Source: Eledone cirrhosa (Eukaryota). From it: a stretch of 64,000 bases of DNA. Of the stretch, positions 31,679 to 64,000 are shown piece after piece. The translations under genes and the position numbers were made by a program. Within the stretch, counting starts at the first letter, position 1. Each line of letters begins with the position of its first letter. Location of the stretch: the NCBI GenBank assembly GCA_964016885.1, contig OZ024745.1, positions 13,454,001 through 13,518,000 of the forward strand. The letters run 5' to 3'. A model generated the notes under the pieces. The model searched no databases. It saw only the letters and a program-made list of their open reading frames with translations, and had not been told where the DNA came from.

Positions 31679-31748
<70 letters not shown>

Positions 31749-32063: not shown

Positions 32064-32079
32064 TTATTGTGTCTGTTCA

Positions 32080-35321: not shown

Positions 35322-35501
35322 GTAAAAGGAAATATATTAAGTGAATCTAGGTTATTTCTTTGATATAAAAATCGAGAAATTTCTTTATCTAGAAATTTTG
35401 GTTAAGAATCATTTCAAGTGGTTTGACCAAAGAGAAACTGATTGTGTTAATAATTGAGTTGATAATTAATATCTGCTCCTACACATCACTTCTTCTTCTT
35501 C

Positions 35502-37776: not shown

Positions 37777-37810
37777 GTGGTCTTTCCCATCTTTTCCACT
37801 CCTTTTCAAC

Positions 37811-40800
37811 ATGACCTCACTCAGAATAGGCAGCATAAATGCGCGTGGCTTGGGGTCGTCATGGAAGCAGGGCCACCTGCTCAACGACCTCAGGTCACTA
37901 AACATAGATGTAGTGGCCATCAGCGAGACCAGAATCTCCGAAGCACAGGCTTTCGCACCGATCTTCGGCGGCTACGATGTGTACGCATCTCCCAGCCGTC
38001 CGGGATCGGGGGGAGGAGTTGCTGTGCTTTTTCGGAGAGGTTTGGATCTTGCCATACGGGCCATCTTCCTGGACCCAGAAGGTAAGTTGGTGGTGCTGGA
38101 CGTGACCAGCGGAGACGGGCAAGCTTTCAGGTTAGTGGCCGTCTATGCCCCGACAGGAGCAGGGCGGCCTGATTTCTTCCGGCGTCTGGAGACCTTTCTT
38201 GGAACGTCCCGCTCTTTAGTGTTAGTGGGCGACTGGAACGGGATCTTAGATGCACGCTGGGATTGTGTGGGATTAGTGGATAGGGAAGGAGGGTGCAAGA
38301 GTCTCACCAACCTGCTCAGACGTTTTGAACTGTCTGACAGGTACCGAATGGATTTCCCGAATGTACCAGTGTGGACTTGGACAAATCGCATAGGGTCATC
38401 CAGATCATATCTAGATAGAGTATTTTGTAGGGAAATAGATAGGTCTAGCATAGGCTGTCCACAATTCAAGATAGTCAGCTACACGGACCACAAATTCGTG
38501 ATCTGTGTGCTTGACTTAGATAGGCTTCATAGACGAGGACCCGGCTACTGGAAGCTAAACGCGTCCTTACCAGCGCGCAAGGCCTACAGAGACCGGATTA
38601 GCGAACTAGTTAAGCGGGCGTTGACGGGGGCCATCGTCAACAACAAGTGGTGGTTTGCTCTGAAAAGAGCAATTAGAATAGAGTCCATTAGGTTTAGTAA
38701 GACTTTAGCAATAGAGAAAAATAGAGCAGAGGGAGAATTAGTTAGAAAATTAGATGAGGCGCTTAGCAAAGGCATCGCGACCGACGTACTTGCGGCGAAA
38801 TTGGCCCTTGACCAATTCTTCAATGCAAAGCACGAAGGCTGCGTTGTCAGAGCTAGGGTGCGTGCTCTCAGACACGGGGGGACGAAAGCCGTTCAATGGG
38901 CCCGAGTGGCGGAGGCGCGTCGTGGCAACAAAGCCACGATCCGGTCTTTGGTGGACCACGACGGGCGCATGCTACTCGATCCCGGGAAAATGTGTGAAGC
39001 TTTTCAGCGACACTCCGCTCAACTGTTCGGGGGCAGTGGCGGGCCGGATCGAGGGATGGACTTTAGTGTCTACCTCGACGGACTGCCGCGGCTTTCGGCC
39101 ACTGAGGCGGAGTGTTGCGAAAAGCCGATAACAACCGCGGAAGTACGGGATGCAATGACTAGTTGCACAAGGGGTAAATCGCCTGGTTTGGATGGTCTGC
39201 CCTATGAACTTTACGTACAAATGCCAAACTTGTTCGGAGGCCTCTTGGCGGACGTCTACTGCAACTGGCAACAGAACGGGAGAATATCCAGCTCTGTGAG
39301 CCGAGGAGCGGTGGCGCTGCTGAGAAAGGATCCGAACAAGGGGGATAACATAGATAATTTTAGGCCCATAACTCTGCTAAACACAGAGTTCAAGATTTTG
39401 GCCAAGGTGCTAGCAAAGAGGTTGGCGCTTGTCGTTGGTGGTCTGGTGGGAGAGGCACAGACATGCGCCATTCCCGACAGATCCATCCACGACAACCTCC
39501 ACCTCATGCGATACATCGTAGAGAGGGTAGCTAGGGAACCTGGCACGGGTGGGTCTTTGATCAATTTAGATCAGTCGAAAGCCTTCGATAGGGTCGACCA
39601 TCGTTACCTAACGGCAGTCCTGAGGGCGGCTGGCTTTGGGCCCGTCTTCAGCGGCTGGATCGCTGCCATGCACAGCGACATCTGCTCTGTAGTGAGAGTG
39701 AACGGTCACCTTTCGGAACCGTTCAACATCATGCGCTCGGTCCGCCAAGGATGTCCCCTCTCGTCTCTATTGTACGTATTGACTCTCGAGCCATTACTGC
39801 ACAAACTGGAGACGTTGAGGGGGGTCCCGCGCGAACTAGGATGCGGAAGATCCGTGTCAGCATATGCCGACGATGTCACCGTAGTGGTGTCGAACGCCAA
39901 ACACATCGAGGCGATCGGCACTACACTAAGAGAATACGAATCGGTGACAGGAGCAATGATCAACCAGGAAAAGTCAGTGGGCCTGCAGCTCGGCACCTGG
40001 AGAGGCAGGTCCATGCCGTCCAACAGCGTCGTCGGGCGCTGGACGGACGGACCGGTTAAATTGCTAGGGGTCTGGTTCGGTCCAGACCTCCAGACGGACA
40101 AAAACTGGGACGAGGTGACGAGCAGGGTGGCTTCTCTCACCCAGAAATGGGCCGAGAGGAAGCTATCCCTGAAAGGTCGAGCGGAGGTGGCGAATGCGTA
40201 CATCGCATCCGTCATCTACTACCGCCTGACCGTCGTACCTTGTCCTATGCCCCGCCTGACTGCGCTGGAGCGTTTGCTCTTTCGCTTCTTGTGGAAGGGA
40301 CGCGCTCCGATGGTTAGGCGGTCCATCTGCTGTCAACACCCGCTACGTGGAGGGCTGGGCATGCCGTGGCTGATGATGCGCAGACACGCGCTCAGGCTAC
40401 GACATCTCCACCTCTTCCTCGACGGTGATCAGGTGTGGTCGCCGTTTGCAAGACACGTTTTTCCCCAGCTCGTCTCCTTGACGGAGCTGCAGTCCTGGGT
40501 CAAGCGAAGACCGAGAGGGAGCGCTTGGAGACTGGAATGTCTTCAGGCGCTCACAGCCCTCGACCAATCGGGCAATGTGATCGGTGGAAACTCCACCTTG
40601 GCGTTCTATAGGGGATTAGTGGAGGGGAAGAGCGACGACGTACTTGGAGAAACTCTAGGCGTCGACGAAAATCAACTAGCCAATCTCTTCGGAAGGACTT
40701 TCGGGCCGGGGCCTATGGACAACTTCCAGAAATCCCTGGCCTGGCAGTGCTACCGAGAAGCTTTGCCAGTTCGGGATAAACTCTACAGGCATGGAGGTGC

Positions 40801-41230
40801 CGTCAGCCGGGCATGTCCGAGATGCGCGCAGGGCGACGAAACCGTCCTGCACGCACTCGTCCAGTGTCCGAGCATTGCTGACTTGTGGGTTTATGTCGAA
40901 CACCTGCTGTCACGTGTAGGATGGATCCAGCTATCAGCTGAGTCCATCGTGAGGATTGCCCCGCCCCCTTCCTTTAGCCTGGAAGGGCAGGCAGTTTTTA
41001 TCTGTCTGGTGGCCATGGCGAAAGAGATAGTATGGTGGACACGTTTGAAAGGGCTGAAGACGAGCACTTACCTCTTCGGTGATGCCCTGATTAACTTTTT
41101 CAAATTTCATTTGAAAAGGAAAATCAGGGTAGAGAGGGAAGTGCTCTCTTCCCAGCATTTTGTTGAAAGATGGGTGAGAGAAGCAAGTATGGCCCGAATG
41201 AATGGGCCTTCTCTGAGTATGTGTCTGTAA
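37811..41230 (+). CDS. Tx1 ORF2 polyprotein: APE endonuclease, reverse transcriptase, C-terminal Cys/His domain (1139 aa, intact)
   Basis: INARGLG, AISET, GDWN, SYLDR, TDHK; KSPGLDG, DQSKAFDRV, QGCPLS, YADD; CPRC..ETVLHALVQC. Confidence 0.96.
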   Translation: MTSLRIGSINARGLGSSWKQGHLLNDLRSLNIDVVAISETRISEAQAFAPIFGGYDVYASPSRPGSGGGVAVLFRRGLDLAIRAIFLDPEGKLVVLDVTSGDGQAFRLVAVYAPTGAGRPDFFRRLETFLGTSRSLVLVGDWNGILDARWDCVGLVDREGGCKSLTNLLRRFELSDRYRMDFPNVPVWTWTNRIGSSRSYLDRVFCREIDRSSIGCPQFKIVSYTDHKFVICVLDLDRLHRRGPGYWKLNASLPARKAYRDRISELVKRALTGAIVNNKWWFALKRAIRIESIRFSKTLAIEKNRAEGELVRKLDEALSKGIATDVLAAKLALDQFFNAKHEGCVVRARVRALRHGGTKAVQWARVAEARRGNKATIRSLVDHDGRMLLDPGKMCEAFQRHSAQLFGGSGGPDRGMDFSVYLDGLPRLSATEAECCEKPITTAEVRDAMTSCTRGKSPGLDGLPYELYVQMPNLFGGLLADVYCNWQQNGRISSSVSRGAVALLRKDPNKGDNIDNFRPITLLNTEFKILAKVLAKRLALVVGGLVGEAQTCAIPDRSIHDNLHLMRYIVERVAREPGTGGSLINLDQSKAFDRVDHRYLTAVLRAAGFGPVFSGWIAAMHSDICSVVRVNGHLSEPFNIMRSVRQGCPLSSLLYVLTLEPLLHKLETLRGVPRELGCGRSVSAYADDVTVVVSNAKHIEAIGTTLREYESVTGAMINQEKSVGLQLGTWRGRSMPSNSVVGRWTDGPVKLLGVWFGPDLQTDKNWDEVTSRVASLTQKWAERKLSLKGRAEVANAYIASVIYYRLTVVPCPMPRLTALERLLFRFLWKGRAPMVRRSICCQHPLRGGLGMPWLMMRRHALRLRHLHLFLDGDQVWSPFARHVFPQLVSLTELQSWVKRRPRGSAWRLECLQALTALDQSGNVIGGNSTLAFYRGLVEGKSDDVLGETLGVDENQLANLFGRTFGPGPMDNFQKSLAWQCYREALPVRDKLYRHGGAVSRACPRCAQGDETVLHALVQCPSIADLWVYVEHLLSRVGWIQLSAESIVRIAPPPSFSLEGQAVFICLVAMAKEIVWWTRLKGLKTSTYLFGDALINFFKFHLKRKIRVEREVLSSQHFVERWVREASMARMNGPSLSMCL

Positions 41231-41472
41231 ATTAAAGGTGGAAAACTGGGAGAGGGCACTTGCCCTGGTGGTCAGGGCCACTGTGGTCTTTTAATGGGCT
41301 TTCTCCACAAATGTCCCTTGGAAGTCTCCCCCCTATTGGGGAATTTTTCTTTGTTATTTTATTTCAACCTCTGTTTTTTTACACGCAGAAATGCCCATTT
41401 GTACCGTCCTGTATTGTCCTGTACTGTCCTTAATGTCTACTTTATGTGAACCCTTGTGGTTAATAAAGAAAA

Positions 41473-41473
<1 letters not shown>

Positions 41474-41528
<55 letters not shown>
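41474..41528. repeat. (TTA)n shared by the 3' ends of elements C and D
   Basis: Direct inspection. Confidence 0.95.
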
Positions 41529-46889: not shown

Positions 46890-46934
<45 letters not shown>

Positions 46935-46948
46935 GTTGTTATTGTTAT

Positions 46949-48900
46949 TCCTTGAATCTCAGTCATTGATGTTGGTTAACTGGAGAGTCCGTTGGATTGA
47001 ATATCAAGCCACTACCTGCAGCCTCAGATATTCAGGACGTATCGGAGGGTTCTTGCTGCTCCAAGCAAGCATGCCTTTTGAAGCGTTCCAAAAAGCGTGA
47101 AGGGGCCGATTTTCTTTAACCATCCCTGGAAACCTTTGGAGATAGTCCCCAGTGCGCCTATGACAATCGGGATCACTTTGACTTCATGGCAGTTCCAAAT
47201 CCTTTTCACCTCCCACTTTAGGTCCTGGTATCGGTTAATTTTCTCCCTCTCCTTCTGTTGCACTCTCGTGTCGAACGGGCAGGCCACATCCACAATCAGG
47301 CACGATCTTTTTTCTTTGTCCACAACCACCAGGTCAGGTCTATTGTGTTCCAGTTTTTTGTCCGTCTGTATCCTAAAATCCCACAGCACCTTCACCTGAC
47401 TGTTCTCCATCACCGCATCTGGCTTATGCTCATACCATTTCTCAGAATGTGGTAGATTGTTTACTTTGCACAGGTGCCAGTGGATCACCCTGCCCATCAC
47501 ATCGTGTCTCCAGCCCTTATAGTGGGTCTGGGCTAGGTGTTTACATTCGGACACAATGTGAGCCACAGTCTCCTCTCTCTCTCCACAGATCCTGCACAGT
47601 GGGCTAGCCTCCTCCTTGTAGATATGGTGCTTCAACCACTTCGTTTTGAGGGCCTGCTCCTGCGCAGCCATTAGCATTCCTTCTGTAGCCTTTTTGAGGT
47701 CTCCTCTTCTCAACCAGTTCCATGTCTGTGGATCTCTAAATTCAGTTTTCTCAAAGAAGGTACTATGAAGGGATTTTCCCTTAAGGCTGCTCTTCCTCCT
47801 TGATGTTATTTCCTCCTTGGGCATCCCCTGGCCTACTGTCCCCTCCTTCAGTACAGTTCTGAGCATTGGCTCCTTACTATAGGTCACGTATTTGTATAGG
47901 TTGTTTTTCTCCATCTGAACACAGTCCTCTATGCTGATAAGACCTCTTCCACCCTCAGATCTCCTTAGGTAGAGTCTATCGACATCACTCCTCTTGTGGA
48001 ACATGTTGTAGATAGTCAATAGCTTCCTAGTCTTCCTATCCATTTCTTTTTGTTCAGCAACATTCCATCTCAGAATTCCCGCACTGTACCTAATAATAGA
48101 CACAGCTCGGGAATTTACTGCGCTTATGGCATTTCTGCTGTTCAGATGTGACTTCAATACGCTCCTTACTCTCCGAATGTATTCAGTTCTTAACAATTCC
48201 TTCATTTTTTTGTTCTTTATGCCATCAGCCTCCAGAACGCCCAAATACTTGTATCCTTCCTCAGAGTCAATTTCCTTTATCATCTCACCTGTTGGTATCT
48301 GGATCCCGTTACTTCTGCTCAACCTACCCCTCTTCATCACAATGACTCCACATTTACCAATACCAAACTGCATACATATATCACTGCTGAAAATACGGAC
48401 AGTGTCAACAAGCACATCCAACTCCTTCTCACTTTTCCTGAAGAGCTTAAGATCGTCCATGAAGAGGAGGTGATTGATGGTAAGCTCTCCCCTTCCCAAC
48501 TTGTATCCTGCTCTCACTTTTCGCAGCACAATGGTTAAGGGCATCAGGGCAAGGACAAACAACAGAGGGGACAGGCTATCTCCCTGGAAGATACCTCTCT
48601 TGATCTTCACGCTTCCCAAGGATACTCCAGTTGATGTCAACTCTGTCTCCCAGGACCCCATACTCCTGCCCAGCAACTGTCTGATGTTATCTGCCACCCT
48701 GAAGATCTCCAGGCTTTTGGTGATCCAGGAATGAGGCACCATGTCAAATGCCTTTCTGTAGTCTATCCATCCCATGGCAAGATCAGTGTGTCTCCTCCTG
48801 CAATTCCCCATTACCATCTTATCAATAAGCAACTGGTCCTTTGTACCACGTGACTTCTTTCGGCATCCTTTCTGTTCGTCCGGTAACAAGTTGTTTGTGT
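46949..48900 (-). mobile_element. R4/Dong-like element E, 5'-truncated, with an uninterrupted 621-aa RT-RLE frame (47024-48889)
   Basis: [40 protein letters not shown]. Confidence 0.93.
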
Positions 48901-48902
48901 GT

Positions 48903-51900
48903 TATTATTATTCTTTGAGTCTCAGTCATTGATGTTAGTTAACTGGAAAGTTTGTTGAAATGAATATCAAGCCACTACCTGCAGCCTCAGATATTCAGGA
49001 CGTATCGGAGGGTTCTTGCTGTTCCCAGCAAGCATGCCTTTTGAAGCGTTCCAAAAAGCGTGGCGGGGCCAATTTTCTTTAACCATCCCTGAAAACTTTT
49101 TGAGATAGTACCTAGTGCGCCTATGACAATCGGGATCACTTTGACTTCATGGCAGTTCCAAATCCTTTTTACCTCCCACTTTAAGTTCTGGTATCGGTTA
49201 ATTTTCTCCCTCTCCTTCTCTTGCACTCTCGTGTCGAATGGGCAGGCCACATCCACAATCAGGCACGATCTTTTTTCTTTGTCCAAAACCACCAGGTCAG
49301 GTCTATTGTGTTCCAGTTTCTTGTCCGTCTGTATCCTAAAATCCCACAGCACCTTCACCTGATCATTTTCTATCACCGACTCTGGCTTATGCTCATACCA
49401 CTTCTCAGAATGTTTACTTTGCATAGGTGCCAGTGGATCACCCTGCCCATCACATCATGTCTCCAGCCCTTATAGTGAGTCTGGGCTAGGTGTTTACACT
49501 CGGATACAATGTGAGCCACAGTCTCCTCTCTCTCTCCACAGATCCTGCACAGTGGGCTAGCCTCCTCCTTGTAAATATGGTGTTTCAACCACTTCGTTTT
49601 GAGGGCCTGCTCTTGCGCAGCCATTAACATTCCTTCTCTAGCCTTTTTAAGGTCTCCTCTTTTCAACCAGTTCCATGTCTGTGGATCTCTGAATTCAGTT
49701 TCTCAAAGAAGGTACTATGAAGGGATGTTTCATGAAGGCTGCTCTTTCTCCTTGATGTTATTTCCTCCTTGGACATCCCCTGGTCTATTGTCCTCTCCTT
49801 CAGTACAGTTCTGAGCATTGGCTCCTTACTATCAGTCACGTATTTGTGTAGGTTGTTTTTCTCTATCTGAACACAGTCCTCTATGCTGATAAGACCTCTT
49901 CCACCTTCAGATCTCCTTAAGTAGAGTCTATCGACATCACTCCTCTTGTGGAACATGTAGTAGATAGTCAATAGCTTCCTAGTCTTCCTATCCATTTCTT
50001 TTTGTTCAGCAACATTCCATCTCAGAATTCCCGCACTGTACCTAATAATAGACATAGCTCGGGAATTTACTGCACTTATGGCATTCCTACCTTTCAGATG
50101 TGACTTTAATACGCTCCTTACTCTTCGAATGTATTCAGTTCTTATCAATTCCTTCATTTTTTTGTTCTTGATGTCATCAGCCTCCAGAACACCCAAATAC
50201 TTGTATCCTTCTTCAGTGTCAATTTCCTTTATCATCTTACCTGTTGGTACCTGGATTCCGTTACTTCTGCTCAATTTACCCCTCTTCGTTACAAGGACTC
50301 CACACTTACTAATACCAAATTGCATACATATATCATTGCTGAAAATACGGACAGTGTCAACAAGCACATCCAACTCCTTCTCACTCTTCCCGAAGAGCTT
50401 AAGATCGTCCATGAAGAGGAGGTGATTGATGGTAAGCCCTCCCTTTCCCAACCTGTATCCTGCTCTCACTTTTCGCATTATACTGGTCAGGGGCATCAGG
50501 GCAAGGACAAACAACAGAGGGGACAGACTATCTCCCTGGAAGATACCTCTCTTGATCTTCACGCTTCCCAAGGATTCTCCAACTGATGTTAACTCTGTTT
50601 CCCAGGACTTCATACTTTTGCCCAACAACTGTCTGATGTTATCTGCCACCCTGAAGATCTCCAGGCTTTTGGTGATCCAAGAGGCACCATGTCAAATGCC
50701 TTTTTGTAGTCTATCCTTCCTCTTGCAATTCCTCATTACCATCTTATCAATAAGTAACTGGTCCTTTGTATCACGGGACTTCTTTCGGCATCCTTTCTGT
50801 TCGTCCGGTAACAAGTTGTTTGTGTGGAGGTGATGGTAGATTTCCTCAGACATAATGCTTGTCAACAGTTTCCACATTACGGACAGACATGTGATAGGTC
50901 TATAGTTGGTAACATCATTACCCTTGATTCGGTCTTTCATTATCAGAACTGTGGTACCTTTTGTCAACCACTCTGGTACCTCACCTGACATCAAGCAGTC
51001 ATTGAACATGGTTGTCAGTTTCGGGTGGAGGGATGTTATATTTTTTACCCCATACCCCTGCACACCATCTGGGCCTGGTGATTTCCAGTTGGTTAGTTTT
51101 TTGGCCTGCCCCTTAAGAGTTTCAACTGTGATACTCAAATCAGTTTGTTGATGTGCCTGTTCACTAATCTCCTTCTGTACTGTCTCAATCCACACTGCCT
51201 GGTCATTATGTTTAACATCCTGCTCCCATATTCCTCTCCAGAATGTTTTAGTTTGTTCCGCCTCAGGGATCAAGTCGTTGCCTCTTTCTTTCCCTTCAAG
51301 CTGTCCAAACAGCATCTTCTGGTTGTTGTCAAACATGCGGTTCTGTCTATACTGACTGACTCTGTTCTCGTATCGCCTGATTTTTGCACTCTTTGCTACA
51401 ATGCGTTGCTTCAGTTCCTCTATGATAATATTTAGCTTTTTCCTCCTACTGTTGTACTTTATTTCCAGTCTATTTTTAGTGTCTATGTTTTTTAGTGTCC
51501 CATTCAGTAGGGACTCAAGCTTTCCAATGTCATTTCTCATTTCCCTGATTTGACCACTCAGTCGTTTCTTCCACCAAGGCTCACATCTTTCTTGTTTGTT
51601 ATTTCCTCTCGCTTTTATACCAAGTAATTTCCTCACCGTATTTGCTGTTGCTTTGAGGATATTGTTGCACTGGTGAAGACTCCTCGCCTCAAGGTATGGG
51701 ATGACTTTGTTTACCTTAGCTGTTGTTTCTTTTAACTTTTTCCTGTCTACAAATCTTAGGTTCATAGGTTTCCCACTATCATTGTTCAATTCATCTACCA
51801 CTAAGTTTAGGATATCAACCAAATCTTGTCCTAGCCCGTCAGCATTCATCTCCTCAGTGGCCGTATCTCTGTTCCAGGTATTATTTATTTCAGCATTCAG

Positions 51901-52440
51901 ATCATTGTCTGCTTCGGGTGGTTCCTCCGTTCTCTCGACCTCTTCACCTTCATTTCCCACTGGCTCGTTTGCCTGGCATACTCCACTCCTCATTTCCAAG
52001 CTAATCTCTCTGCTCAGTTCCAGCTCGCTTATCCACCCATTAGTTCTTATTACCCGAGCCTGCCCGGCCAATTTCTGTTCATCCAATTTAAATAGACCAA
52101 TCTCGTTCCAGATGTTATGCATCCGTTTCCTATAGCCTTTCTCCTTGGGGTTACTCTTCAGGTAACATTGCATAACAGTTCTATTCAATTCTTTCGTCCA
52201 GTTGGTTCTGGTCCCTTTCCTTCTTCTTCTTCCTCCGACACCAGCAGTATTTGATTGACAGCCAGGTCCCTGCTGCTGAGCCAGGGAGCACCTGTTGGGT
52301 GAGAGTCTGTCACATGACATTCTAGTCTCCACTTCACTGTTATTCAAACTGTTTAGGTTCGACATTTAAACACTCTTATCGAGGATTGGCGAATGTATAA
52401 CCACCGCTGATTTCATCACCTCCGGTGATTTCGTCACTCC
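48903..52440 (-). mobile_element. R4/Dong-like element F, near full-length, frameshifted, same family as E
   Basis: ORFs 50692-52365, 49663-50649, 49373-49666 and 48987-49424; short (TAA)n tail at 48902-48911; 5' boundary approximate. Confidence 0.92.
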
Positions 52441-53117
52441 CGGTGATTTGTGTGTGGCATTATCACGCTGTAGACAAACATAAATAAACAAACAAACAAA
52501 CAGGCAAAAAAAAACCCAAAATGAATAAGCATAAGTTTCATTGTAATGTAATGTTTGAATGTCTGACTTAGTTTTTCCTTTCCCTTCTCTGTCTGTCTGT
52601 TTGTTTTTCTCTTCATTTTTCTTTTCTTTACGTTTTTCGTTGTTGCTGTGCTGCTTTGATTTTGATTTTGTTTTTTTGATTTTGACCGGGTCATCAATTC
52701 AGTCTATTTATATATTTTGATGCCTTCCTCTTTTAGTGGGGACACTACGATGTAGCAGGAGGTAGTGGGAGAGAATAGCGGCGGTAGTGATAATGAGGCA
52801 GTGGTGGTGGTGGTGGTGGTGGTGGTACTGTGCTAGTAGTACCTAGCAGGAGGTAGTGGGAGAGAATAGCGGCGGTAGCGATAATGAGGCAGTGGTGGTG
52901 GTGATGTGATCGTAGTACTGTAGTGATGGTGTTGAAGTTGAAGTAGAAATAGAGGTTGAGGCAACTTGACCAGAGTTTTTAGCGTGGTAGTGGTGGTGGT
53001 GGTGTTGGTGGTGAAATTATCTTTAGCTATTTAGCTATTTAGTCATTTTGCCATTTTCCTCCTTTTCGACTCCAACATTCCTGATCCAAAATTAAATATT
53101 AATATTGTTTATTAATA

Positions 53118-53408
53118 TTGTCTAGTGATACCGCCACCTTCCCCTTTCGTAAGTTAACAGAAGGTAATGGGGGAACAGCGGTGGTAGCAATGAAGGAGTG
53201 GTGGCGGCGGTGATGGGATAGTGGTAGCAATGATTGATGGGTGGTGGCGGTGGTGACTATAGTGATGGCGTTGTCGTTACTGAGTTTTGTTGAATAGACT
53301 GTAGTTTTGTTTGATCGGTGAATCTATGCGGTTAGTCGCGAATGTTTAATATATGTGTTGACATATTTTCTTAATATTGGAATTAAACATTTTGTGAAAA
53401 CTTGAGAC
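53118..53408 (+). repeat. Diverged direct duplicate of 45808-46071
   Basis: Shared TTGTCTAGTGATACCGCCACCTTCCCCTTTC ... AAAACTTGAGAC. Confidence 0.85.
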
Positions 53409-53732
53409 TCCCAGCATTTTGTTGAAAGATGGGTGAGAGAAGCAAGTATGGCCCGAATGAATGGGCCTTCTCTGAGTATGTGTCTGTAAATTAAAGGTGG
53501 AAAACTGGGAGAGGGCACTTGCCCTGGTGGTCAGGGTCACTGTGGTCTTTTAATGGGCTTTCTCCACATATGTCCCTCGGAAGTCTCCCCCCTATTGGGG
53601 AATTTTTCTTTGTTATTTTATTTCATCCTCTGTTTTTTTTACACGCAGAAATGCCTATTTGTACCGTCCTGTATTGTCCTGTACTGTCCTTAATGTCTAC
53701 TTTATGTAAACCCTTGTGGTTAATAAAGAAAA

Positions 53733-53733
<1 letters not shown>
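53409..53733 (+). mobile_element. 5'-truncated copy of the Tx1 element C 3' end
   Basis: Near-identical to about 41150-41473; followed by (TTA)n. Confidence 0.92.
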
Positions 53734-53781
<48 letters not shown>

Positions 53782-53899
53782 GCCCCCCCCCAACTTCCCT
53801 CATCATCATCATCAACAATTTTCTATCACTTCCCCAACATTAATCCCGCCACTACAACACTCACTACAGCCAATCAGTTATACTACTGTCTCCCCTTAG

Positions 53900-54392
53900 C
53901 AACCACCACTATATACCACTACCACTACTATATCACCACTACTACCATCACCACTACCACTACTACCATCACCACTACCACTACTACCACCACCACTATA
54001 TACCACTACCACTACTACCATCACCACTACCATCACCACTACAACTACTACCATCACCACTACCTCTATATAACCACTACCCCTACTACCATTACCACTA
54101 CCTCTATATAACCACTACCACTACTACCATCACCACTACCATCATCACTACCACCACTACCATCACCACTACCTCTATATAACCACTACCACTACTACCA
54201 TCACCACTACCATCACCACTACAACTACTACCATCACCACTACCTCTATATAACCACTACCACTACTACCATCACCACTACCATCACCACTACCACCACT
54301 ACCATCACCACTACCTCTATATAACCACTACCACTACTACCATCACCACTACCATCACCACTACTACTATCTTCACTCTCACTACTACCATC
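53900..54392. repeat. (CACTAC/CATCAC)-based simple repeat with recurring CTCTATATAA unit
   Basis: Direct inspection. Confidence 0.9.
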
Positions 54393-54743
54393 ATTGATGG
54401 TGAGGTTGTTGATGATGGCGGTGGGTGTCTTGTCAATGAGGGTATGTGTGTGTGTGGGGGGGGGGGGGGGTTTATATATATAATTCGTTAGTGTCTCTCC
54501 AGGAACATGTATATTTATATTGAAGATATTGTAATGGTTGCCGCTGTTGTTGAAGACAATGTAAGGAGGATGTGATTATATTGCGGGGGGGGGGGTCGTT
54601 AAGTGCAGATTAGAAATAGAACAGTGGAAACTAGAGTAAAGAAAAGCACCTGTTTACACTTTTACCTTATATTGCAATGTATCGTATACTAAAATATATA
54701 GGTAAAGTTTGTAGATCTTGATTGTCATTTTAATACTGACGAC

Positions 54744-54774
<31 letters not shown>

Positions 54775-54779
<5 letters not shown>

Positions 54780-55150
54780 AACGAGTAGGACCCCGACGGC
54801 TGAGCTCAAGCCGTTTCGACGGCTAATTCTGGACTAAATGAAAATTTTTATCCTGGTATATGAATAGCCGAGCTTCCACAAATTGCCATGATAGAATTAT
54901 GTGTCTCAACAACAAACTTTTGACCAATCCTTGTGACAATCACTTTTACCATATATGGAATTACCCCCTGAGAAGCTCGGCTATTCATATACCAGGATAA
55001 AAATGTTCATTTAGTCCAGAATTAGCCGTCGAAATGGCTTGAGCTCAGCCGTCGGGGTCCTACTCGTTCCTATTACCCACTCTACTACCCTAAGTATTGA
55101 GTACTTTGGTGCGTTATGGTCCACCTGGTTCCTTACCACATTTCCTTCGT
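54775..55150 (+). mobile_element. Fold-back element (102-bp arms 54775-54876 and 54972-55073), probably Penelope pLTR-derived
   Basis: Arms differ at 2 positions; (TA)n on both sides; contains a hammerhead. Confidence 0.8.
54963..55058 (+). ncRNA. Type I hammerhead ribozyme with one lesion in the CUGANGA box
   Basis: Stem I ACCCC/GGGGT; CTGAGAA; stem II CGGCTA/TAGCCG; GAAA; stem III (C/T)GGCT/AGCCG; GUC site. Confidence 0.75.
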
Positions 55151-55176
55151 TATATATATATATATATATATATATA

Positions 55177-55374
55177 GTGGTGGAACACTGGAAGGTAATA
55201 TCCGTAGTGATAGAGCACTCAGTCCATGGGACGAGTTAGGTAGAAGTGGTTACACAACAGTTAGTTCACCATACCGAGAACAATTGTTTCACCTTAGCGG
55301 ATCCTCAGCTAAGGTTCCGCTAAGGTGAAACAATTGTTCTCGGTATGGTGAACTAACTGTTGTGTAACCACTTC

Positions 55375-55376
<2 letters not shown>
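55177..55376 (-). mobile_element. Fold-back element with perfect 61-bp arms (55241-55301 and 55316-55376)
   Basis: Exact reverse complement with a 14-nt loop; (TA)n on both sides. Confidence 0.82.
55273..55315 (-). ncRNA. Minimal hammerhead ribozyme candidate
   Basis: Minus strand: ACCTTAG-CTGAGGA-TCCGCTAAGGT-GAAA-CAATTG-TT-CTCGGT; palindromic stem III ACAATTGT; weak stems I and II. Confidence 0.65.
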
Positions 55377-55419
<43 letters not shown>

Positions 55420-55423
<4 letters not shown>

Positions 55424-55578
55424 ATAATAATAGAGTTGAAGACCAAAATCCAAAGAGGGCTCGATAAGGATAAATATATATCAAATATATAAGAACCGTA
55501 GAGCAAACATTTATTAAAATAACAGATTAAAGTTTAAGCAAAGAATTTGCGTAAACTTTAATCTGTTATTTTAATAAA

Positions 55579-55580
<2 letters not shown>
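55420..55580 (-). mobile_element. Fold-back fragment (29-bp arms 55508-55536 and 55552-55580), same family as 28300-28460
   Basis: 55435-55507 is the near reverse complement of about 28375-28447. Confidence 0.78.
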
Positions 55581-55612
<32 letters not shown>

Positions 55613-55619
55613 TCAGCTT

Positions 55620-56230
55620 CTACTACAACGTAATATAATATCTGTATACAAATACAACGGTGGGTCCACCCACAGCCCCGGTGGACAGAATGGAGAAGGC
55701 GTTTCCCCGGAGGACGGCAAGGGAGACGCGCTGGAAAGGCCACTCCAACTCGCGGGGCTCACACCTGGGGCTGGCCAGCTCAGCGCCTATGGTGGTGAGT
55801 AAGGAGGTAGCCCTGGGGCCGAGGACACCAGAAGTCTCCACTGCCAGGGGTACGACCACAAACCTGTCGGAGAGCGACCGGTATTTGAGGAGTTTGGCCC
55901 CCTCAGTCCGACGTGCAGCAGAACCTGGGTCAGTCGCAGACTGCACCAGGTTGCGGCTGCAGAAAGTGTCGGTGCAAGTGGCATCCCAGACGAGGGGTTT
56001 GCCACCACGCAACGGGAAGATGGTCATGCCATCTGGCCTTTTGCTGTCCCCTCGATCCAGTCCCACCGGCTCGAGCTGGGAAGGGAAGCCTGCAGCATCC
56101 AAGCCATGCTTATGACCTCGCTGAGGGCAGCATGGCGTGGAATGCGGCTGGCACTGTGGTGACAGGAAAGCGGGTGGAGGCCGAAAGAGTCCACGGTGGA
56201 ACCGCAGCGACATTGGTGTGGCTGGCAGAT
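55620..56230 (-). mobile_element. CRE-clade-like non-LTR 3' fragment (RLE domain)
   Basis: [51 protein letters not shown]; 3' end at (TA)n; short duplicate at about 56470-56512. Confidence 0.82.
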
Positions 56231-57211
56231 CCGGAAACAGACTCAGGGAAACACCGATTCGCAGGCTATAGTGTGTTCGTTTTTTACGCGAAGATGTGTT
56301 CGTGAACGCGGTGCGTTAAGCAAATTCGCGTAATGCAAGTCTAATTGCATAGTAAGAACCTTTGTTAAGTTATGTTCCAAACACCAACTTAATAATACAT
56401 CAGAGTGTGAGTGATGCGTGTCTTGGATGTACATGATAAAATGACAAGTCAGTTAATCATATTGATGGCCACTCCACAACCCCGGCGGACAGAATGGAGA
56501 AGGCGTTTCCCCACATCATAATTCTGATGAATAAAAAAATTTAAAACCACACGCGTTATAGCGTGTTATTCGCGTAAACTGAATATTTAATGATATTTTT
56601 TTCAAGAGGCGTTAAAACGAATCAGCGACTTCAAGTTGGAGTAAAAAGCGAACAGACTGTATATAATAGATTTACAAGACAAAAACGGAGTTTTGGAGTT
56701 ACCTTTCGACATGCTAGAAACAGCAACTAAATCTCACTCACACCTGACTTTATTATCTAAAGGAAGTAAACGTTTGATAATATATTCCAATCTAACCCAT
56801 GCTAGCATGGAGAATGGGCGTTAAACGATGATGATGATGATGATGATGATGATGATATACTACACCTGGAAGAAGGGTGACCTGGAGCTAAACAACAACA
56901 GCTACAACAACACTAATTTAGTCAACAAGAAAGTCTATGAATACGAAATAACAACCAAGTTTGCCTCAAACTACACTTTATATCTTAGAAAGAAAAGATA
57001 CATTGTATAATAAAGTCTAGATAGATTATGTCTCAAATGTCTTCTAAGGGGGGTAAGTCTGGTTAAACAACTAATATTTTTAGTTGTCAAGTTTCCAGTA
57101 TTTGGTCCTCATATCTTCTTTAGTCTAAATATATTCAGATATCTTCATATTTCTCTTAATCTACCGATACCTTACATTCTTTACCAAATACTTTTACTAA
57201 TACAAATATTG

Positions 57212-57345
57212 GTTTTTATTTAGGTAAAAAGACTAAGTACCGGGGGGAGGGGAAAATCGATTAAATCGACACAAAACGTAAAAGGACGTAACTCTATACC
57301 ATAAAGTCCGACGCTCTACTGATTCTACTGCCAATCTACGGTCCT
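57212..57345 (-). mobile_element. Internally deleted SINE with 20-bp TSD
   Basis: TTTTACTAATACAAATATTG at 57192-57211 and 57346-57365. Confidence 0.75.
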
Positions 57346-58409
57346 TTTTACTAATACAAATATTGATCTCTATTTTAATTGACATTCATAAATACAGAAA
57401 TGATGAGCATTGCTGCTAATTCCGTTACAAATTCTTTCTGGTTCTGTTTTTAACAAGGAACCTTCTAGGATTTCTACAAAATCTTCTTCATATCGTCGTC
57501 CACTTTCGGTGTACAATACCTGTAGAAAGCGGAGTTATTACAAACACATAACAAACGTGATTAAATATCAATTGAGAAACAAACAAACGAAATCTTCGGT
57601 GGATATGTTTCCACTAATTTAAAATATGAAATAGAAGGAGAAAGAAGGAGAGAGATTTCGTTTAACATGTAATCTGGTCGCGTGATCTACTTAGTACCGA
57701 CAAGAAGACCAGCGGACATTGTAGATCACATGGAGCTTCTGTGTGGTTGTTTGACCACCTAGAAAGACAACAATCATCCCTCGTATTAGGGGAATAGCTA
57801 CCGTTGAAAAATTGTTGATCTGCTTGATTAGAGCCGACCTGGGGCTAAATAATATCATCAAAAGCCACCACATCAACTACTACAGCTACTACTACAACAT
57901 CAAGTGGGGAATAAAAAGGAGAGAATTTGTTTTAAGCGAATATATTTTATATTTGTATAAACCTCTCATTTTTCTCACTAAATTTTTTTAACCAATGTTC
58001 TAGAAAATATTCCAATTTATAACTACTATAATTATTATTTTTCTTATTATTCAATGTTAAGAATGATTAAAAATTATTGTTGTTGTTGTTATTATCATCA
58101 TCATCAACAACATCATCGCAAATGCACGCAAGAAACCAAATACGTGGACAATAAACAAAAATAAATAAACATCTGTATGAAATTTAAAAAAAAAAGATAA
58201 TATTACAGTTGAGTGTTTTAGATATGTGATGGGTTGGTAATGAAAACTTAACAATTATAAATTTCAATTAAAATTTCAGATGTTGGAGAGAGAGAGGACT
58301 GAGTGAGTGAGAAAAAGAGAGACAGACCGAGTGAGAAAGAGAGAAGGGGTAGAGAGAGAAAAAAGTGAGAGACTGAGTGAGAAAGAGAGAGAGAGAGAAA
58401 GGGGTGGAC

Positions 58410-58543
58410 AGAGAGGGGTATTATAAAATTTGGTTCTCTGTGTACGGTGTCTTAACTGAACGTTATGTCTTCTGTTGACGAGAATTATTGCTGTAATGTT
58501 CGTTACATGACATCATTAATGGTAAAACAGGAAATAGAAATAC
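58410..58543 (+). promoter_or_regulatory. Conserved 134-bp element, copy 2: TATAAAA (58422-58428), hairpin (58446-58514), ATG-GTAAAA
   Basis: 132/134 identity to the inverted copy at 25476-25609; promoter role is inferred. Confidence 0.45.
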
Positions 58544-58984
58544 TGAGAGTGAATTGATTATTGAGAAGCAGGGCGGAGGTCAGTCGATATATCGGGCCCG
58601 GGTGGCCAGAGAAGGACACGTGAATATCAGACCCTACTTTCTGAAGTAAACCCTCAACCATCTTTAATTATTAGACGAGATGTCCTTCCTCCGAGGGACC
58701 TGGAAGTTATCTATACTGTGAACACAATCAATAGATTATTCTAAGTTCTTTTACAATATCGAAGTAGGACACAACATATATAAGGGGGCCGGCAGCGAAC
58801 GGTCGGGGCCGAACAGAGGCCAGTAACTCTTCTACTACGTTCTATCTTCTAGTAAAACAAGAAACAGAATTCTTCTTCTTCTTCCTCTCCTCCTCATCCT
58901 CCACCCCCTCCTCATACCCTTCCAAGGTTTCAACTGATCATCTGTTGCTCATGGTGATTTCATCCCGAATTTTCAACTTTGCAG

Positions 58985-59620
58985 AAAATTGTTGGCCTTG
59001 TACCTAAATGAGAACCCATTATTTTGTCAACTTTGCCTTTCATCCTTACGGGGTCGATAAAATAAAGTACCAGTAATGTACTGCTAATTGCTGGCCTTGT
59101 GCCTAAAGTAGAAACAATTATTTTGTCAGGGAGGGAAGAGACGTGTTCGTGGGTCTTTTCAGAACTCACGCGACTGATGGGAGAGAATAAGGAACGTTTC
59201 TTAAACTGAACAGGTGACCTTAATGCTTGCAAGAAAATGAACTCTAGTAAAGGCGCTCAAATGTCAGGTGAAAGTGTTAAACTAGGTGGCAGGTTAAGTC
59301 TGCTACTTAAGTAAGCCGCAGCGGGATTTTGAACTCTGAACGCAAAGAGCCGGAAGAAATATCACACGGTCTCTCATCCAACGCCCTAACAATTGCACCA
59401 AACCTCCACCCTAAACTGGTGCATTATTTTGTCGACCTCGAAAGAGTGAGACAGAGAGAGAGAGAGAATCGGCCCTAGTACTTGACTGGTACGACCTCGA
59501 ATGAATGAAAGGTAAAGTTGACCTCGGCAACATTTGAACTGAGAGAGTAAGGAGCCAAAACAAATACCACAAATTACTCTATCTGACGTTCTTACAACTC
59601 TGCCAATTCGTCGCCATTGT
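58985..59620. mobile_element. Cluster of partial family-1 SINEs in both orientations
   Basis: Core motif at 59025-59120 (+); degenerate copies at 59320-59615 (-). Confidence 0.7.
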
Positions 59621-59699
59621 ATGTGTGTGTGTGACAGCTCACACCTATGCAGGTTTAGCTGGCCTCCTCCAAGGTATATCTCGTTGGAGGTGTCTTGGG

Positions 59700-59876
59700 T
59701 AATTTAATGATAGGGACCCCAGTCTTATCATCTCATTTCTATAGCTGAGTAAACTGGAGCAAGGTGAAATAAAGTGTCTTGCTCAAGGGAACAACACATC
59801 ACCCGGTCCGAGAACTGAACTCACAACCTTTCGATTGCAAGCCCAATGCTCTAACCACCAAGCCATGCGCCTTCAC
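59700..59876 (-). mobile_element. CORE/MIR-like tRNA SINE (family 2)
   Basis: tRNA-like head on minus (GGCGCATGGCTTGGTGGTTAGAGC) and AAGTGTCTTGCTCAAGG core. Confidence 0.75.
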
Positions 59877-60204
59877 TGTCGCCATTAAACTAAGTAAAAG
59901 ATTACCAAAGAAACAAAATATATTTTTATAAACATTTAAGGGCGCAGGTCCTAATTCCGGAAATTGGGACCTTCACACATTTGATCTGAATGGGGTAGAT
60001 GGAATGTTTGCGGGTGTTGATGACAGAAATATCCAATTTCTGGTAGTGGTGGTGGTGGTGGTGGGGGGGGGGTTTACCGAAGACACACGCGTAATATTTA
60101 CTTTTTATAACATGTTTTATTGGTTTGTCTGATAAACACACTAAACATGGACTGTATTAAGGACATACATACTATCTGAAGGACATGCATGCTATCACCT
60201 TGCC

Positions 60205-60320
60205 ATTCTGAGTTCAAATCCCACCGAGGTTAACTTTGCCTTTCATCCTTACGGGGTCGATAAAATAAAGTACCAGTAATGTACTGGATAATTGCTGGCC
60301 TTGTGCCAAAAGTAGAAACA
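60205..60320 (+). mobile_element. Family-1 SINE lacking its 5' end
   Basis: GAGTTCAAATCCCACCGAGGTTAACTTTGCCTTTCATCCTTACGGGGTCG. Confidence 0.85.
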
Positions 60321-60639
60321 AATATATTATTTATCATTAATTGTGACTGCTTATTTCGAAATGATATCTCAAAAACATCGTCTAGATTCGCCTCTCATTA
60401 TTGATAACAAACATTATATAACATCGTTGTTTACATTTACATTTTCCTACAATCAACAATAATCAAGATTCGATATTCGCTGATTTGTTCTTCAGCCAAT
60501 AAAAAGACAGAAAATGATAATAAAAAACCTGCACCAATTTCTTATTTCAAAAGTTCTTATTTCTTATTGATTCCAGTTGAGAGGTTCTGTCTGTAAGTCA
60601 ACTCTGATTAACAGTTATGTCACTAATTCATCTATATTG

Positions 60640-63600
60640 GGTGGTGTAGTGGTGTGGTGCTGTGGAGGTGTGGTGGTGTGGTGGTGTGGTGGTGTGGAGG
60701 TGTGGTAGTGTGGTGGTGTGGAGGTGTGGTGGTGTGGTGGTGTGGTGGTGTGGAGGTGTGGTGGTGTGGTGGTGTGGTGGTGTGGAGGTGTGGTGGTGTG
60801 GTGGTGTGGTGGTGTGGTGGTGTGGCGTGGTGGTGTGGTGGTGTAGTGTGGTGGTGAGGTGGTCTGGTGGTGTGCTGGTGTGCTGGTGTGGTGGAGTGGT
60901 GGTGTGGTGGTGTGGTGGTGTGGTGGTGTGGTGTGGGGGTGTGGTAGTGTGGGGGGGGGGGGGGTAGTGTGGTGGTCTGGTGGTCTGGTGGTGTGGTGGT
61001 GTGGTGGTGTGGTGGTGTGGTGGTGTGGTGGTGTGGTGTGGTGGTATGGTAGTGTGGTGGTGTGGTGGTGTGGTGGTGTGGTGTGGTGGTGTGGTAGTGT
61101 GGTGGTCTGGTGGTGTGGTGGTGTGGTGGTGTGGTGGTGTGGTGTGGTGGTGTGGTGGTCTGGTGGTGTGGTGGTGTAGTGGTGTGGTGGTGTGGTGGTG
61201 TGGTGGTCTGGTGGTGTGGTGGTGTGGTGGTGTGGTGGTGTGGTGGTGTGGTGGTGTGGCGGTGTGCTGGTGTGGTGGTGTGGTGGTGTGGTGGTGTGGT
61301 GTGGTGGTGTGGTGGTGTGGTGTGGTGGTGTGGTAGTGTCCTGGTGTGGTGGTGTGGTGGTGTGGTGGTGTGGTGGTGTGGTAGTGTGGTGGTGTGGTGG
61401 TGTGGTGGTGTGGTGGTGTGGTGGTGGTGTGGTGTGGTGTGGTGGTATGGTGGTGTGGTGGTGTGGTGGTGTGGTGGTGTGGTGTGGTGGTGTGGTGGTG
61501 TGGTGGTGTGGCGGTGTGCTGGTGTGGTGGTGTGGTGGTGTGGTGGTGTGGTGGTGTGGTGGTGTGGTGTGGTGGTGTGGTAGTGTGGTGGTGTGGTGGC
61601 CTGGTGGTGTGGTGGTGTGGTGGTGTGGTGGTGTGGTAGTGTGGTGGTGTGGTGGTGTGGTGGTGTGGTGGTGTGGTGGTGTGGTGATGTGGTGGTGTGG
61701 TGTGGTGGTGTGGTGGTGTGGTGTGGTGGTGTGGTGGTGTGGTGGTGTGGCGGTGTGCTGGTGTGGTGGTGTGGTGGTGTGGTGGTGTGGTGTGGTGGTG
61801 TGGTAGTGTGGTGGTGTGGTGGTGTGGTGGTGTGGTGGTGTGGTGATGTGGTGTGGTGGTGTGGTAGTGTGGTGGTCTGGTGGTCTGGTGGTGTGGTGGT
61901 GTGGTGGTCTGGTGGTGTGGTGGTGTGTTGGTGTGGTAGTGTGGTGGTGTGGTAGTGTGGTGGTGTGGTGGTGTGGTGGTGTGGTGGTGTGGTGGTGTGG
62001 TGTGGTGGTGTGGTAGTGTGGTGGTGTGATGGTGTGGTGGTGTGGTGGTGTGGTGGTCTGGTGGTGTGGTGGTGTGGTGGTGTTGAGGTGTGGTGGTGTG
62101 GTGTGGTAGTGTGGTGGTGTGGTGGTGTGGTAGTGTGGTGGTGTGGTGGTGTGGTGGTGTGGTGGTGTGGCGGTGTGCTGGTGTGGTGGTGTGGTGGTGT
62201 GGTGGTGTGGTGTGGTGGTGTGGTAGTGTGGTGGTCTGGTGGTGTGGTGGTGTGGTGGTGTAGTGGTGTGGTGGTGTGGTGGTGTGGTGGTCTGGTGGTG
62301 TGGTGGTGTGGTGGTGTGGTGGTGTGGTGGTGTGGTGTTGTGGTGTGGTAGTGTGGTGGTGTGGTGGTGTGGTGGTGCGGTGGTGTGGTGGTGTGGTGTG
62401 GTGTGGTGGTGTGGTGGTGTGGTGGTGTGGTGGTGTGGTGGTGTGGCGGTGTGCTGGTGTAGTGGTGTGGTGGTGTGGTGGTGTGGTGTGGTGGTGTGGC
62501 GGTGTGCTGGTGTAGTGGTGTGGTGGTGTGGTGGTGTGGTGTGGTGGTGTGGTAGTGTGGTGGTCTGGTGGTGTGGTGGTGTGGTGGTGTGGTGGTGTGG
62601 TGGTGTGGTGGTGTGGTGTGGTGGTGTGGTAGTGTGATGGTGTGGTGGTGTGGTGGTGTGGTGGTGTGGTAGTGTGGTGGTGTGGTGGTGTGGTGGTGTG
62701 GTGGTGTGGTGGTGTGGTGGTGTGGAGGTGTGGTAGTGTGGTGGTGTGGTGGTGTGGTGGTGTGGAGGTGTGGTGGTGTGGTGGTGTGGTGGTGTGGTGG
62801 TGTGGTGTGGTGGTGTGGTGGTGTGGTGGTGTGGTGGTGTGGTGTGGTGGTGTGGTAGTGTGGTGGTGTGGTGGTGTGGTGGTGTGGTGGTGTGGTGTGG
62901 TGGTGTAGTAGTGTGGTGGTCTGGTGGTCTGGTGGTGTGGTGGTCTGGTGGTCTGGTGGTGTGGTGGTGTGGTGGTCTGGTAGTGTGGTGGTGTGGTAGT
63001 GTGGTGGTGTGGTGGTGTGGTGGTGTGGTGTGGTGGTGTGGTGGTGTGGTAGTGTGGTGGTGTGGTGGTGTGGTGGTGTGGTGTGGTGGTGTGGTAGTGT
63101 GGTGGTGTGGTGGTGTGGTGGTGTGCTGGTGTGGCGGTGTGCTGGTGTGGTGGTGTGGTGGTATGGTGGTGTGGTGTGGTGGTGTGGTAGTGTGGTGGTC
63201 TGGTGGTGTGGTGGTGTGGTGGTGTAGTGGTGTGGTGGTGTGGTGGTGTGGTAGTGTGGTGGTGTGGTAGTGTGGTGGTGTGGTGGTGTGGTGGTGTGGT
63301 GGTGTGGTGTGGTGGTGTGGTAGTGTGGTGGTGTGGTGGCCTGGTGGTGTGGTGGTGTGGTGGTGTGGTGGTGTGGTAGTGTGGTGGTGTGGTGGTCTGG
63401 TGGTGTGGTGGTGTGGTGGTGTGGTGGTGTGGTGGTGTGGTAGTGTGGTGGTGTGGTGGTGTGGTGGTGTGGTGGTGTGGCGGTGTGCTGGTGTGGTGGT
63501 GTGGTGGTGTGGTGTGGTGGTGTGGTAGTGTGGTGGTTTGGTGGTGTGGTGGTGTGGTGGTGTGGTGGTGTGGTGGTGTGGTGGTGTGGTGGTGTGGTGT

Positions 63601-64000
63601 GGTGGTGTGGTGGTGTGGTGTGGTGGTGTGGTGGTGTGGTGGTGTGGTGGTGTGGTGGTGTGGTGGTGTGGTGGTGTGGTGGTGTGGCGGTGTGGTGGTG
63701 TGGTGGTGTGGTGGTGTGGTGGTGTGGTGTGGTGGTGTGGTAGTGTGGTGGTCTGGTGGTGTGGTGTGGTGGTGTGGTGGTGTGGTGGTGTGGTGGTGTG
63801 GTGGTGTGGTGGTGTGGCGGTGTGGTGGTGTGGTGGTGTGGTGGTGTGGTGGTGTGGTGATGTGGTGGTGTGGTGTGGTGGTGTGGTAGTGTGGTGGTGT
63901 GATGGTGTGGTGGTGTGGTGGTGTGGTGGTGTGGCGGTGTGGTGGTGTGGTGGTGTGGTGGTGTGGTGGTGTGGTGGTGTGGTGGTGTGGTGTGGTGGTG
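60640..64000. repeat. G/T-rich satellite of 8-bp GGTGTGGT with 5-bp GGTGT units; continues past window end
   Basis: Direct inspection. Confidence 0.97.

Follow-up and report, generated by a model that had tools for sequence, protein, structure and literature searches.

Two copies of a 134-bp block, at positions 58410-58543 and, inverted, at 25476-25609 of a 64-kb stretch of DNA (the window, analysed at its full length), are almost identical and face away from each other. Judging from the layout of the sequence, the best explanation may be a duplicated Pol II promoter or first exon whose two copies were kept alike by constraint together with gene conversion, a reading that we hold tentatively and with somewhat less than even confidence. 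If it is correct, the block would mark where a duplicated, unannotated gene probably begins in a region filled with repeats. The underlying event, local concerted evolution of inverted paralogues, is of a known kind, and this instance of it would be new. On this reading, local homogenisation of inverted paralogues would mimic an ultraconserved RNA, a caution for scans that take paralogue identity as RNA function.

A near-identical block at the tip of an inverted duplication

In the following, copy A is the plus-strand block at 58410-58543 and copy B the inverted block at 25476-25609 (minus strand). Comparison of copy A with the reverse complement of copy B gave 132/134 identical positions, and our recount agrees with the two differences reported in the first-pass annotation, which are located at 58430 (T in A, C in B) and 58480 (G in A, A in B). 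The identity of the block is significantly higher than that of the distal homologous block, which has 92 mismatches in 441 columns (Fisher p 1e-9). A 24-nt probe, searched with up to 3 mismatches, matched only copies A and B in the 64-kb window (0 matches expected from 100 shuffles), and no third copy was found there.

The block forms the tip of a head-to-head inverted duplication of at least 1.4 kb, the distal parts of which are 76-81% identical. The homology spans 57141-58543 on the side of copy A and 30708-25476 on the side of copy B, with 57141-57994 pairing with 30708-29948 and 57985-58543 pairing with 26050-25476. The two arms are separated by 26.4 kb, and arm B is interrupted by 3.9 kb of sequence without a counterpart in arm A (26050-29948), which contains SINE-like repeats and microsatellites. 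The distal arm of copy A (57141-57994, plus strand) aligns at 70-81% identity with that of copy B (29948-30708, minus strand). Within it, 57316-57790 is 81% identical to arm B (345 matches, 81 mismatches, 23 gaps) and 57890-57994 is 78% identical. An AT-rich and indel-rich homologous spacer follows (57985-58183, plus strand, about 76% identical to 25871-26050 in B), and next to it lies a second near-identical block, which aligns without gaps (58184-58274, plus strand, 88/91 identical to 25782-25872). Between this block and the 134-bp block there is a GA-rich microsatellite, the length of which differs between the copies (58285-58409 on the plus strand, 25610-25771 in B). The homology between A and B ends abruptly at 58543. 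Identity along the arm hence increases in steps, from 76-81% in the distal parts to 92% in a small island described below, then to 97% and finally to 98.5%.

The second block and the 134-bp block are indistinguishable in their mismatch counts (3/91 vs 2/134, p 0.40), whereas the two together differ strongly from the 76% identical spacer (5/225 vs 34/144 mismatches, p 7e-11), the step coinciding with the indel-rich zone. Gene conversion, which had been named as a fallback explanation only, is better supported than was assumed. The near-identical domain amounts to about 360 bp with 97-98% identity outside the slippage-prone GA tract, and the "diverged flank" adjoining the element is thus largely microsatellite. 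The earlier description of the flanks as clearly diverged is right for the distal and spacer parts (76-81%), but not for the second block with its three mismatches.

A conserved island is present further out in the arms, at 57509-57582 in A and 30496-30423 in B, where 68/74 positions (92%) are identical. Its mismatch count is lower than that of the rest of the distal block (6/74 vs 86/367, p 0.003, for a window that was picked after inspection), which suggests constraint outside the 134-bp element too. The island is located about 900 bp upstream of the TATA motif of copy A and is a candidate enhancer common to both arms.

Predicted promoter and first exon

The sequence TATAAAA (58422-58428, plus strand), the ATG at 58519-58521 and the GT at 58522-58523 are all present as had been claimed. 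TATAAAA is the same in both copies, and 58422-58429 matches the TATA-type promoter motif TATAWAWR in A as well as in B; the chance of encountering a TATA-like motif on either strand of 134 nt is about 0.10. A Pol II start is expected 29-32 nt after a TATA box, which would place the start of transcription at 58451-58454, provided that the motif is a real TATA box.

It had been suggested that the block could be a first exon in which the ATG directly before the GT is the only coding element. The segment 58465-58521 (plus strand) contains in-frame ATGs at 58465, 58507 and 58519, is open for 19 codons without a stop and is followed by the possible donor GT at 58522, and an additional ATG at 58496 is out of frame with the one at 58519. 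As three ATGs thus precede 58519, two of them in frame, an ATG-only first exon is unlikely. In addition, ATG-GT-purine follows 3/43 other TATA-like sites in the window (5/45 if copies A and B are included). If the first exon is coding, it would more likely give 19 residues starting from 58465. The broader idea of two Pol II units that arose by duplication and point outward agrees with the anatomy of the locus, with its GA tract, TATA motif and identity rising towards the predicted start, but the products that had been proposed for such a unit are weakly supported.

A sensitive BLAST comparison of the regions downstream of copies A and B returned repeat matches only and no shared second exon; the gene body itself is consequently not seen. 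For the sense frame of B (58 aa), none of 10 candidates among proteins of 103-2000 aa reached E <= 10, the antisense frame at 58396-58512 (39 aa) had no protein match at E <= 0.001, and the ESM Atlas contained no usable match for the peptide frames, all of these being weak tests for frames of this kind. In a Pfam search with 294 frames running from stop to stop over 40 aa or more in 18100-35400 and 52400-60700, a set from which shorter and low-complexity frames had been dropped, no frame reached the cut-off and 8 had sub-threshold matches; the region 4800-18100 was covered by frames of at least 120 aa only.

A weak hairpin and an extended rod

The 69-nt hairpin described in the first-pass annotation is indeed the predicted minimum-energy fold of 58446-58514 on the plus strand (-16.7 kcal/mol), with about 19 well-supported pairs and a poorly ordered loop region of 26 nt. 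The opposite strand of 58447-58515 adopts a different, weak fold (-8.4), and the single difference inside the hairpin, 58480, is located in its terminal loop, so that the claims on strand and on loop position both hold. The hairpin is real but weak. Its z score is -1.80 for copy A and -2.70 for copy B (100 shuffles), the window 58447-58515 has a z score of -1.44 with 16/200 shuffles folding as well, and the whole 134 nt are close to the shuffled mean in A (z -0.01) and at -0.78 in B. Furthermore, 29/1748 GC-matched, overlapping control windows from the 64 kb equalled the 69-nt hairpin, using thresholds that were set from the element itself.

The pairing can be extended to an irregular rod of 110 nt (58429-58538, plus strand, predicted fold), in which 33 pairs lie beneath the loop region. 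These pairs have probabilities of 0.80-1.00 in copy B and of 0.41-0.94 in copy A, the z scores are -2.42 and -1.72, respectively, and 7/1296 control windows fold as well. Both A/B substitutions spare the rod, as position 58430 forms a G-U pair in A and a G-C pair in B and 58480 is in the loop. That the rod ends 5 nt before the A/B identity does, together with the pairing at 58430, is the strongest argument for an RNA. The second near-identical block, 58184-58274, has a weak fold (-9.0 kcal/mol).

The predicted start at 58451-58454 falls inside the 5' arm of the hairpin. The hairpin is lost from an RNA that begins at 58454, and the remaining sequences of A and B fold differently and no better than shuffles (z -0.61 and -0.07). 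A TATA-driven start within the 5' arm makes the TATA box and a pre-miRNA mutually exclusive, and the hairpin is likely incidental to a TATA-driven unit because its 5' arm would not be transcribed.

Comparison with microRNAs and other small RNAs

For each copy, 20 possible 5p starts were scored against the ranges of MirGeneDB 3.0, in which arms have a length of 20-27 nt with 19 +/- 1.6 pairs, loops have at least 8 nt and mollusc precursors are shorter than 80 nt (PMC11701709). With starts at 58446-58451, 16-19 arm pairs are formed, the loop has 15-27 nt and the precursor 61-71 nt, which places pairing and size within these ranges; starts at 58452-58456 give 14-16 arm pairs. Further criteria for canonical genes in MirGeneDB are reads from both arms, homogeneous 5' ends and 2-nt overhangs, as well as a second species for a family name. 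Starts at 58446-58453 have just 4-6 pairs within the 11 nt of the lower stem, due to a 7-nt 3' bulge (58515-58521) at the would-be Drosha cut. Below that cut, a canonical lower stem is continuous and about 11 bp long.

The basal UG, apical UGUG and CNNC motifs are common, but not obligatory, processing motifs. A basal UG at -14 is found only for starts 58445, 58453 and 58455, among which 58453 has 15 arm pairs; no register that forms at least 14 arm pairs has a CNNC; and the sole UGUG, at 58439, lies 5' of the arm and not in the loop. In no register are well-paired arms and an unbroken lower stem found together. A 3p arm that may begin at 58485 starts like what we take to be the seed of a known miRNA family, for which no Rfam match provides backing.

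Among novel octopus miRNA families, 94 genes fall into 90 families, nearly all with a single gene, which indicates that duplicated novel octopus miRNAs are rare (PMC9699675). By ranges and gene counts, the element resembles novel coleoid microRNA genes in hairpin length, arm pairing and strand asymmetry, which are within the curated ranges in one register (PMC9699675, PMC11701709). It differs from them in its broken lower stem, in having neither CNNC nor an apical UGUG, in its weak fold and in having two paralogues that are invariant well past the arms. The earlier proposal of a pre-miRNA thus loses ground through the position of the predicted start, the 4-6 lower-stem pairs and the missing CNNC; the results lend no support to a new microRNA, although there could be one.

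Rfam covariance models had no match in the 64 kb, a search of 58150-58750 alone returned 2 matches at E 4.2 and 9.2, far under the gathering threshold, and no tRNA was found. Judged by the usual sequence patterns, the block contains no hammerhead core, iron-responsive loop, C/D box, Sm site, 3' box or poly(A) signal. Two further classes were rejected. Pol III type-3 RNAs (U6, Y and vault type) end at a T-run terminator, and there is no run of 4 Ts on the TATA strand in 58410-58620 or the equivalent region of B, the first T-runs being located 205 and 158 nt past the block in A and B, respectively. C/D box snoRNAs have a C box followed by a D box, and RTGATGA is found on neither strand.

Copy number

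To estimate how abundant the element is, DNA contigs of the same species, from a single sample with two DNA-like runs, were compared with 57340-58980 at a likeness of 80%. The summed contig depth, which is a rough measure from filtered records and not a copy number, was 4.1 and about 21 on the element, compared with 4.6-5.1 on a single distal contig and 100-760 on repeat bins. Depth arithmetic leads to 2.6-3.7 copies, with the caveat that contig depth is not a true copy count. Among the contig pieces listed for the element, all have the letters of either A or B. A piece of 113 nt stops precisely at 58543, the point from which A and B are no longer alike. The low depth argues against a high-copy repeat, and for nothing beyond that. 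A high copy number had been named as an outcome that would speak against a functional unit; with 2 copies in the window and a depth of 4-21 vs 100-760 on repeats, the element is probably not such a repeat. Two runs from other organisms (5% shared words) covered simple-repeat bins but not the element, which has no bearing on conservation. The 24-nt probe had no match in a scan of JGI metagenomes, and in the literature the exact probe was absent from main texts (searched in DNA letters), while a search by topic produced no account of the element.

A proposed duplicated promoter, homogenised by constraint and gene conversion

We propose that an old duplication of the foldback type would have set two promoters back to back, and that retroelements would later have filled the 26 kb between the promoters and the 3.9 kb inside arm B. 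Binding sites may have kept the promoter-proximal part alike enough for non-allelic conversion to continue there. The conversion tract would be limited by the indel-rich zone before 58184 on one side and by the end of homology at 58543 on the other, and it would have removed differences even at sites without promoter constraint. The predicted transcript would start near 58451-58454 and be spliced at or near 58522 to exons outside the window, so that about 90 first transcribed bases would be included in the shared near-identical end. Identity islands that rise towards the GA tract and the TATA motif are, as we read the alignment, the expected trace of a duplicated promoter.

Constraint on the promoter alone would probably not be sufficient. 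Between TATA and the predicted start, and over the 16 nt that begin at 58528, only 1/39 sites differ in total (p 0.001 at a background of 21%), which is explained by a uniform conversion tract and not by promoter constraint alone. A local identity well above that of the flanks over a few hundred bp is what a non-allelic conversion tract looks like, and the 360-bp domain has this form. The length of the domain is in line with gene conversion tracts in human duplicates, which have a mean length of 250 bp, and conversion fades as duplicates diverge (10.1101/135152). As conversion fades with divergence, constraint would be needed to sustain it, which leads to the combined reading. The same observation also speaks against conversion, since the arms are about 20-25% diverged, and with two sequences and no outgroup conversion is not separable from very strong selection. 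In addition, the fit of the rod to the block would be a coincidence if the block is a promoter, and this counts against the promoter reading.

Drosophila promoters of the Hsp70/amylase type have a layout of GAGA plus TATA. Like the Hsp70 and amylase pairs, the two copies described here are inverted, have a GA-rich tract upstream of TATA and maintain identity near the gene; unlike in these pairs, in which coding regions are homogenised, sharing ends about 90 nt past the predicted start and there is no coding homology. Hsp70 and amylase are named as concertedly evolving inverted pairs in a study on an inverted Dlx pair from Capitella teleta, in which a 150-bp tract covers the most conserved part and the adjoining intron (PMC3199776). 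Similar to the Dlx pair, our copies are linked inverted paralogues in a lophotrochozoan with near-identity over about 150 bp and divergence in the rest. The Dlx tract is, however, located in the homeobox of tail-to-tail genes (PMC3199776), whereas here it is non-coding, head-to-head and without a gene body.

Alternative explanations

The duplicated promoter has to be weighed against readings in which the invariance is due to an RNA product or to no function at all. A lineage-specific structured RNA gene, that is a non-canonical pre-miRNA or another small RNA, would be released as the rod 58429-58538 by cleavage of a longer transcript that begins further upstream; both copies would stay invariant through selection on the RNA, and the TATA-like motif would be incidental. 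We regard this as unlikely, though several features favour it: the rod coincides closely with the invariant stretch 3' of TATA, with the spacer pairing with the 3' end, its pair probabilities in B are 0.80-1.00, the substitutions amount to one in the loop and one G-U/G-C exchange, the fold is strand-asymmetric with z scores of -2.4 to -2.7 for B, and starts at 58446-58450 give 16-19 pairs and a precursor of 63-71 nt, within the MirGeneDB ranges (PMC11701709). It is weakened by z scores that are just -1.4 to -1.8 in copy A and close to 0 when the block is folded as a whole, by the 29/1748 control windows that match the hairpin, by the 7-nt bulge at the would-be Drosha site, the absence of CNNC, the UGUG outside the loop and the lack of an Rfam match, and by the fact that novel octopus miRNA families are nearly all single-gene (PMC9699675). 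Moreover, it leaves the equally conserved 58184-58274, with its weak fold, and the almost invariant loop unexplained. A more specific version, rather unlikely in our view and based on the fold model, is that the block might encode a lineage-specific 110-nt rod RNA outside Rfam families and canonical Drosha geometry, present in two to four copies, whose fold would set the 3' edge of conservation and be spared by both substitutions. Such a rod might represent either a microRNA precursor of non-canonical type or a new class of small RNA in a cephalopod-like genome. If it is a real RNA, a lineage already noted for innovation in its RNAs would gain a small RNA that is both duplicated and non-canonical. 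Neutral homogenisation, to which we give only a small chance, slightly above that of the 110-nt rod RNA, would mean that, a few million years ago, a conversion event or else a secondary duplication copied about 360 bp between non-functional or dead paralogous regions, the motifs being there by chance. The uniform 97-98% identity over both blocks with boundaries at heterologies is consistent with this, as are the other inverted duplications in the window, the absence of a host gene of a known family and the fact that TATA, a hairpin and ATG-GT are each common by chance. On the other hand, the conserved distal island suggests constraint on both copies, the gradient ends at the same place as TATA and the GA tract, and conversion is unlikely to begin at 20-25% divergence unless something held the copies alike (10.1101/135152).

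The block could also be a duplicated enhancer rather than a promoter, with dense binding sites constraining the DNA and targets outside the window, which we consider improbable. Sites that we take to be CRE/AP-1-like (58508) and an ETS-like core (58529) are found in the block, and the conservation islands lack a coding signal, but short motifs arise by chance, near-total invariance over 134 nt is above the usual constraint at the level of sites, and TATA plus the GA tract favour a promoter. That the block is the terminus of a transposable element, either extinct or present in few copies (a MITE, a Helitron-type element or an LTR piece), is very improbable: the abrupt stop of homology, the repeat-rich surroundings and the internal microsatellite would fit, yet there are 2 copies in the window, the contig depth at 80% likeness is low, the homology is an indel-rich 1.4 kb with a gradient instead of uniform decay, and no clean terminal repeat or target-site duplication was seen by inspection. 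A solo LTR at 58544 was likewise rejected, as inspection revealed no target-site duplication and one contig per run covers the site. Families of snRNA genes have a long shared 5' flank and a short shared 3' flank, which the present arrangement recalls, and a short Pol II gene of the spliced-leader or snRNA kind, with an exon ending in ATG before a GTA donor and homology ending soon after, is the least probable of the readings, hardly more than a token candidate. WWG followed by GTA at 58519-58524 corresponds to the SL exon end described in PMC3795323, and if the RNA were 58454-58516 its size would be U7-like (PMC5054213), so that a short unit and the WWG-GTA junction are shared with SL RNA and U7 snRNA genes. 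Against this, no Sm site (AT4-6G) is present on either strand of either copy, the exon would be 68 nt long instead of 22-25 or 36-39 nt (PMC3795323), and the copies are 33 kb apart and not arrayed in tandem. The U7 Sm motif RUUUNUCYNG and the histone-pairing UCUUU box (motifs from PMC5054213) are absent, and there is neither a 3' box nor a T-run terminator.

Genomic surroundings

Immediately downstream of copy A, the region 58544-58870 (plus strand) has no homologue downstream of copy B or elsewhere in the window and is covered by one contig per run. With a GC-box-like motif near 58570 and another, TATA-like one at 58777-58784, it may be a further unit resembling a promoter. Within it, 58852-58869 is a 16/18 copy of the last purine-rich stretch of the element (58522-58539); a diverged tandem copy or a target-site duplication was rejected as its origin, since 6/300 shuffles reach an equal score and the sequence of B carries on in the same way as the first copy. 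On the other side, 25 nt past the end of B, 25150-25450 (plus strand) is a probable 3' fragment of a LINE, which we assume to be of the RTE type from a peptide motif and which has no Pfam match.

The long frames in the window are retroelement-like, with reverse transcriptase in 5/14 frames scanned. The earlier attribution to a cephalopod would be in keeping with the SINEs of octopuses. An inverted pair of endonuclease/reverse-transcriptase LINEs is located at 5800-9598 and 14546-10147 (88.6% identity over 3 kb), and a third LINE at 36166-41230 is 71% identical and contains a 1152-aa frame with endonuclease, RT and zf-RVT domains. An inverted repeat of about 1 kb with internal repeats (18093-19073 and 22722-21709, 95-98% identity) encloses a fragment at 19548-19985 with a weak GIY-YIG match (E 0.0012), and this element (18093-22722) is presumably Penelope-like. 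Satellites occur downstream of both copies, at 7-4744 and 60640-64000, consisting of a 30-bp unit repeated 158 times and an 8-bp unit repeated 432 times, G/T-rich on the plus strand; owing to its composition, the 30-bp satellite on the side of B has no stop in any of the three minus frames and was not taken as an exon for that reason. Near-perfect palindromes or long inverted repeats were noticed by eye at about 55247-55374, 54778-55071 and 35252-35318, the first two beside TA runs, and appear MITE-like. Lastly, tandem pieces of a reverse-transcriptase element at 46933-48901 and 48895-50826 are 92% identical, and a 373-bp direct copy (98%) of a LINE 3' end with a TAT tail is found at 41150-41521 and 53409-53781.
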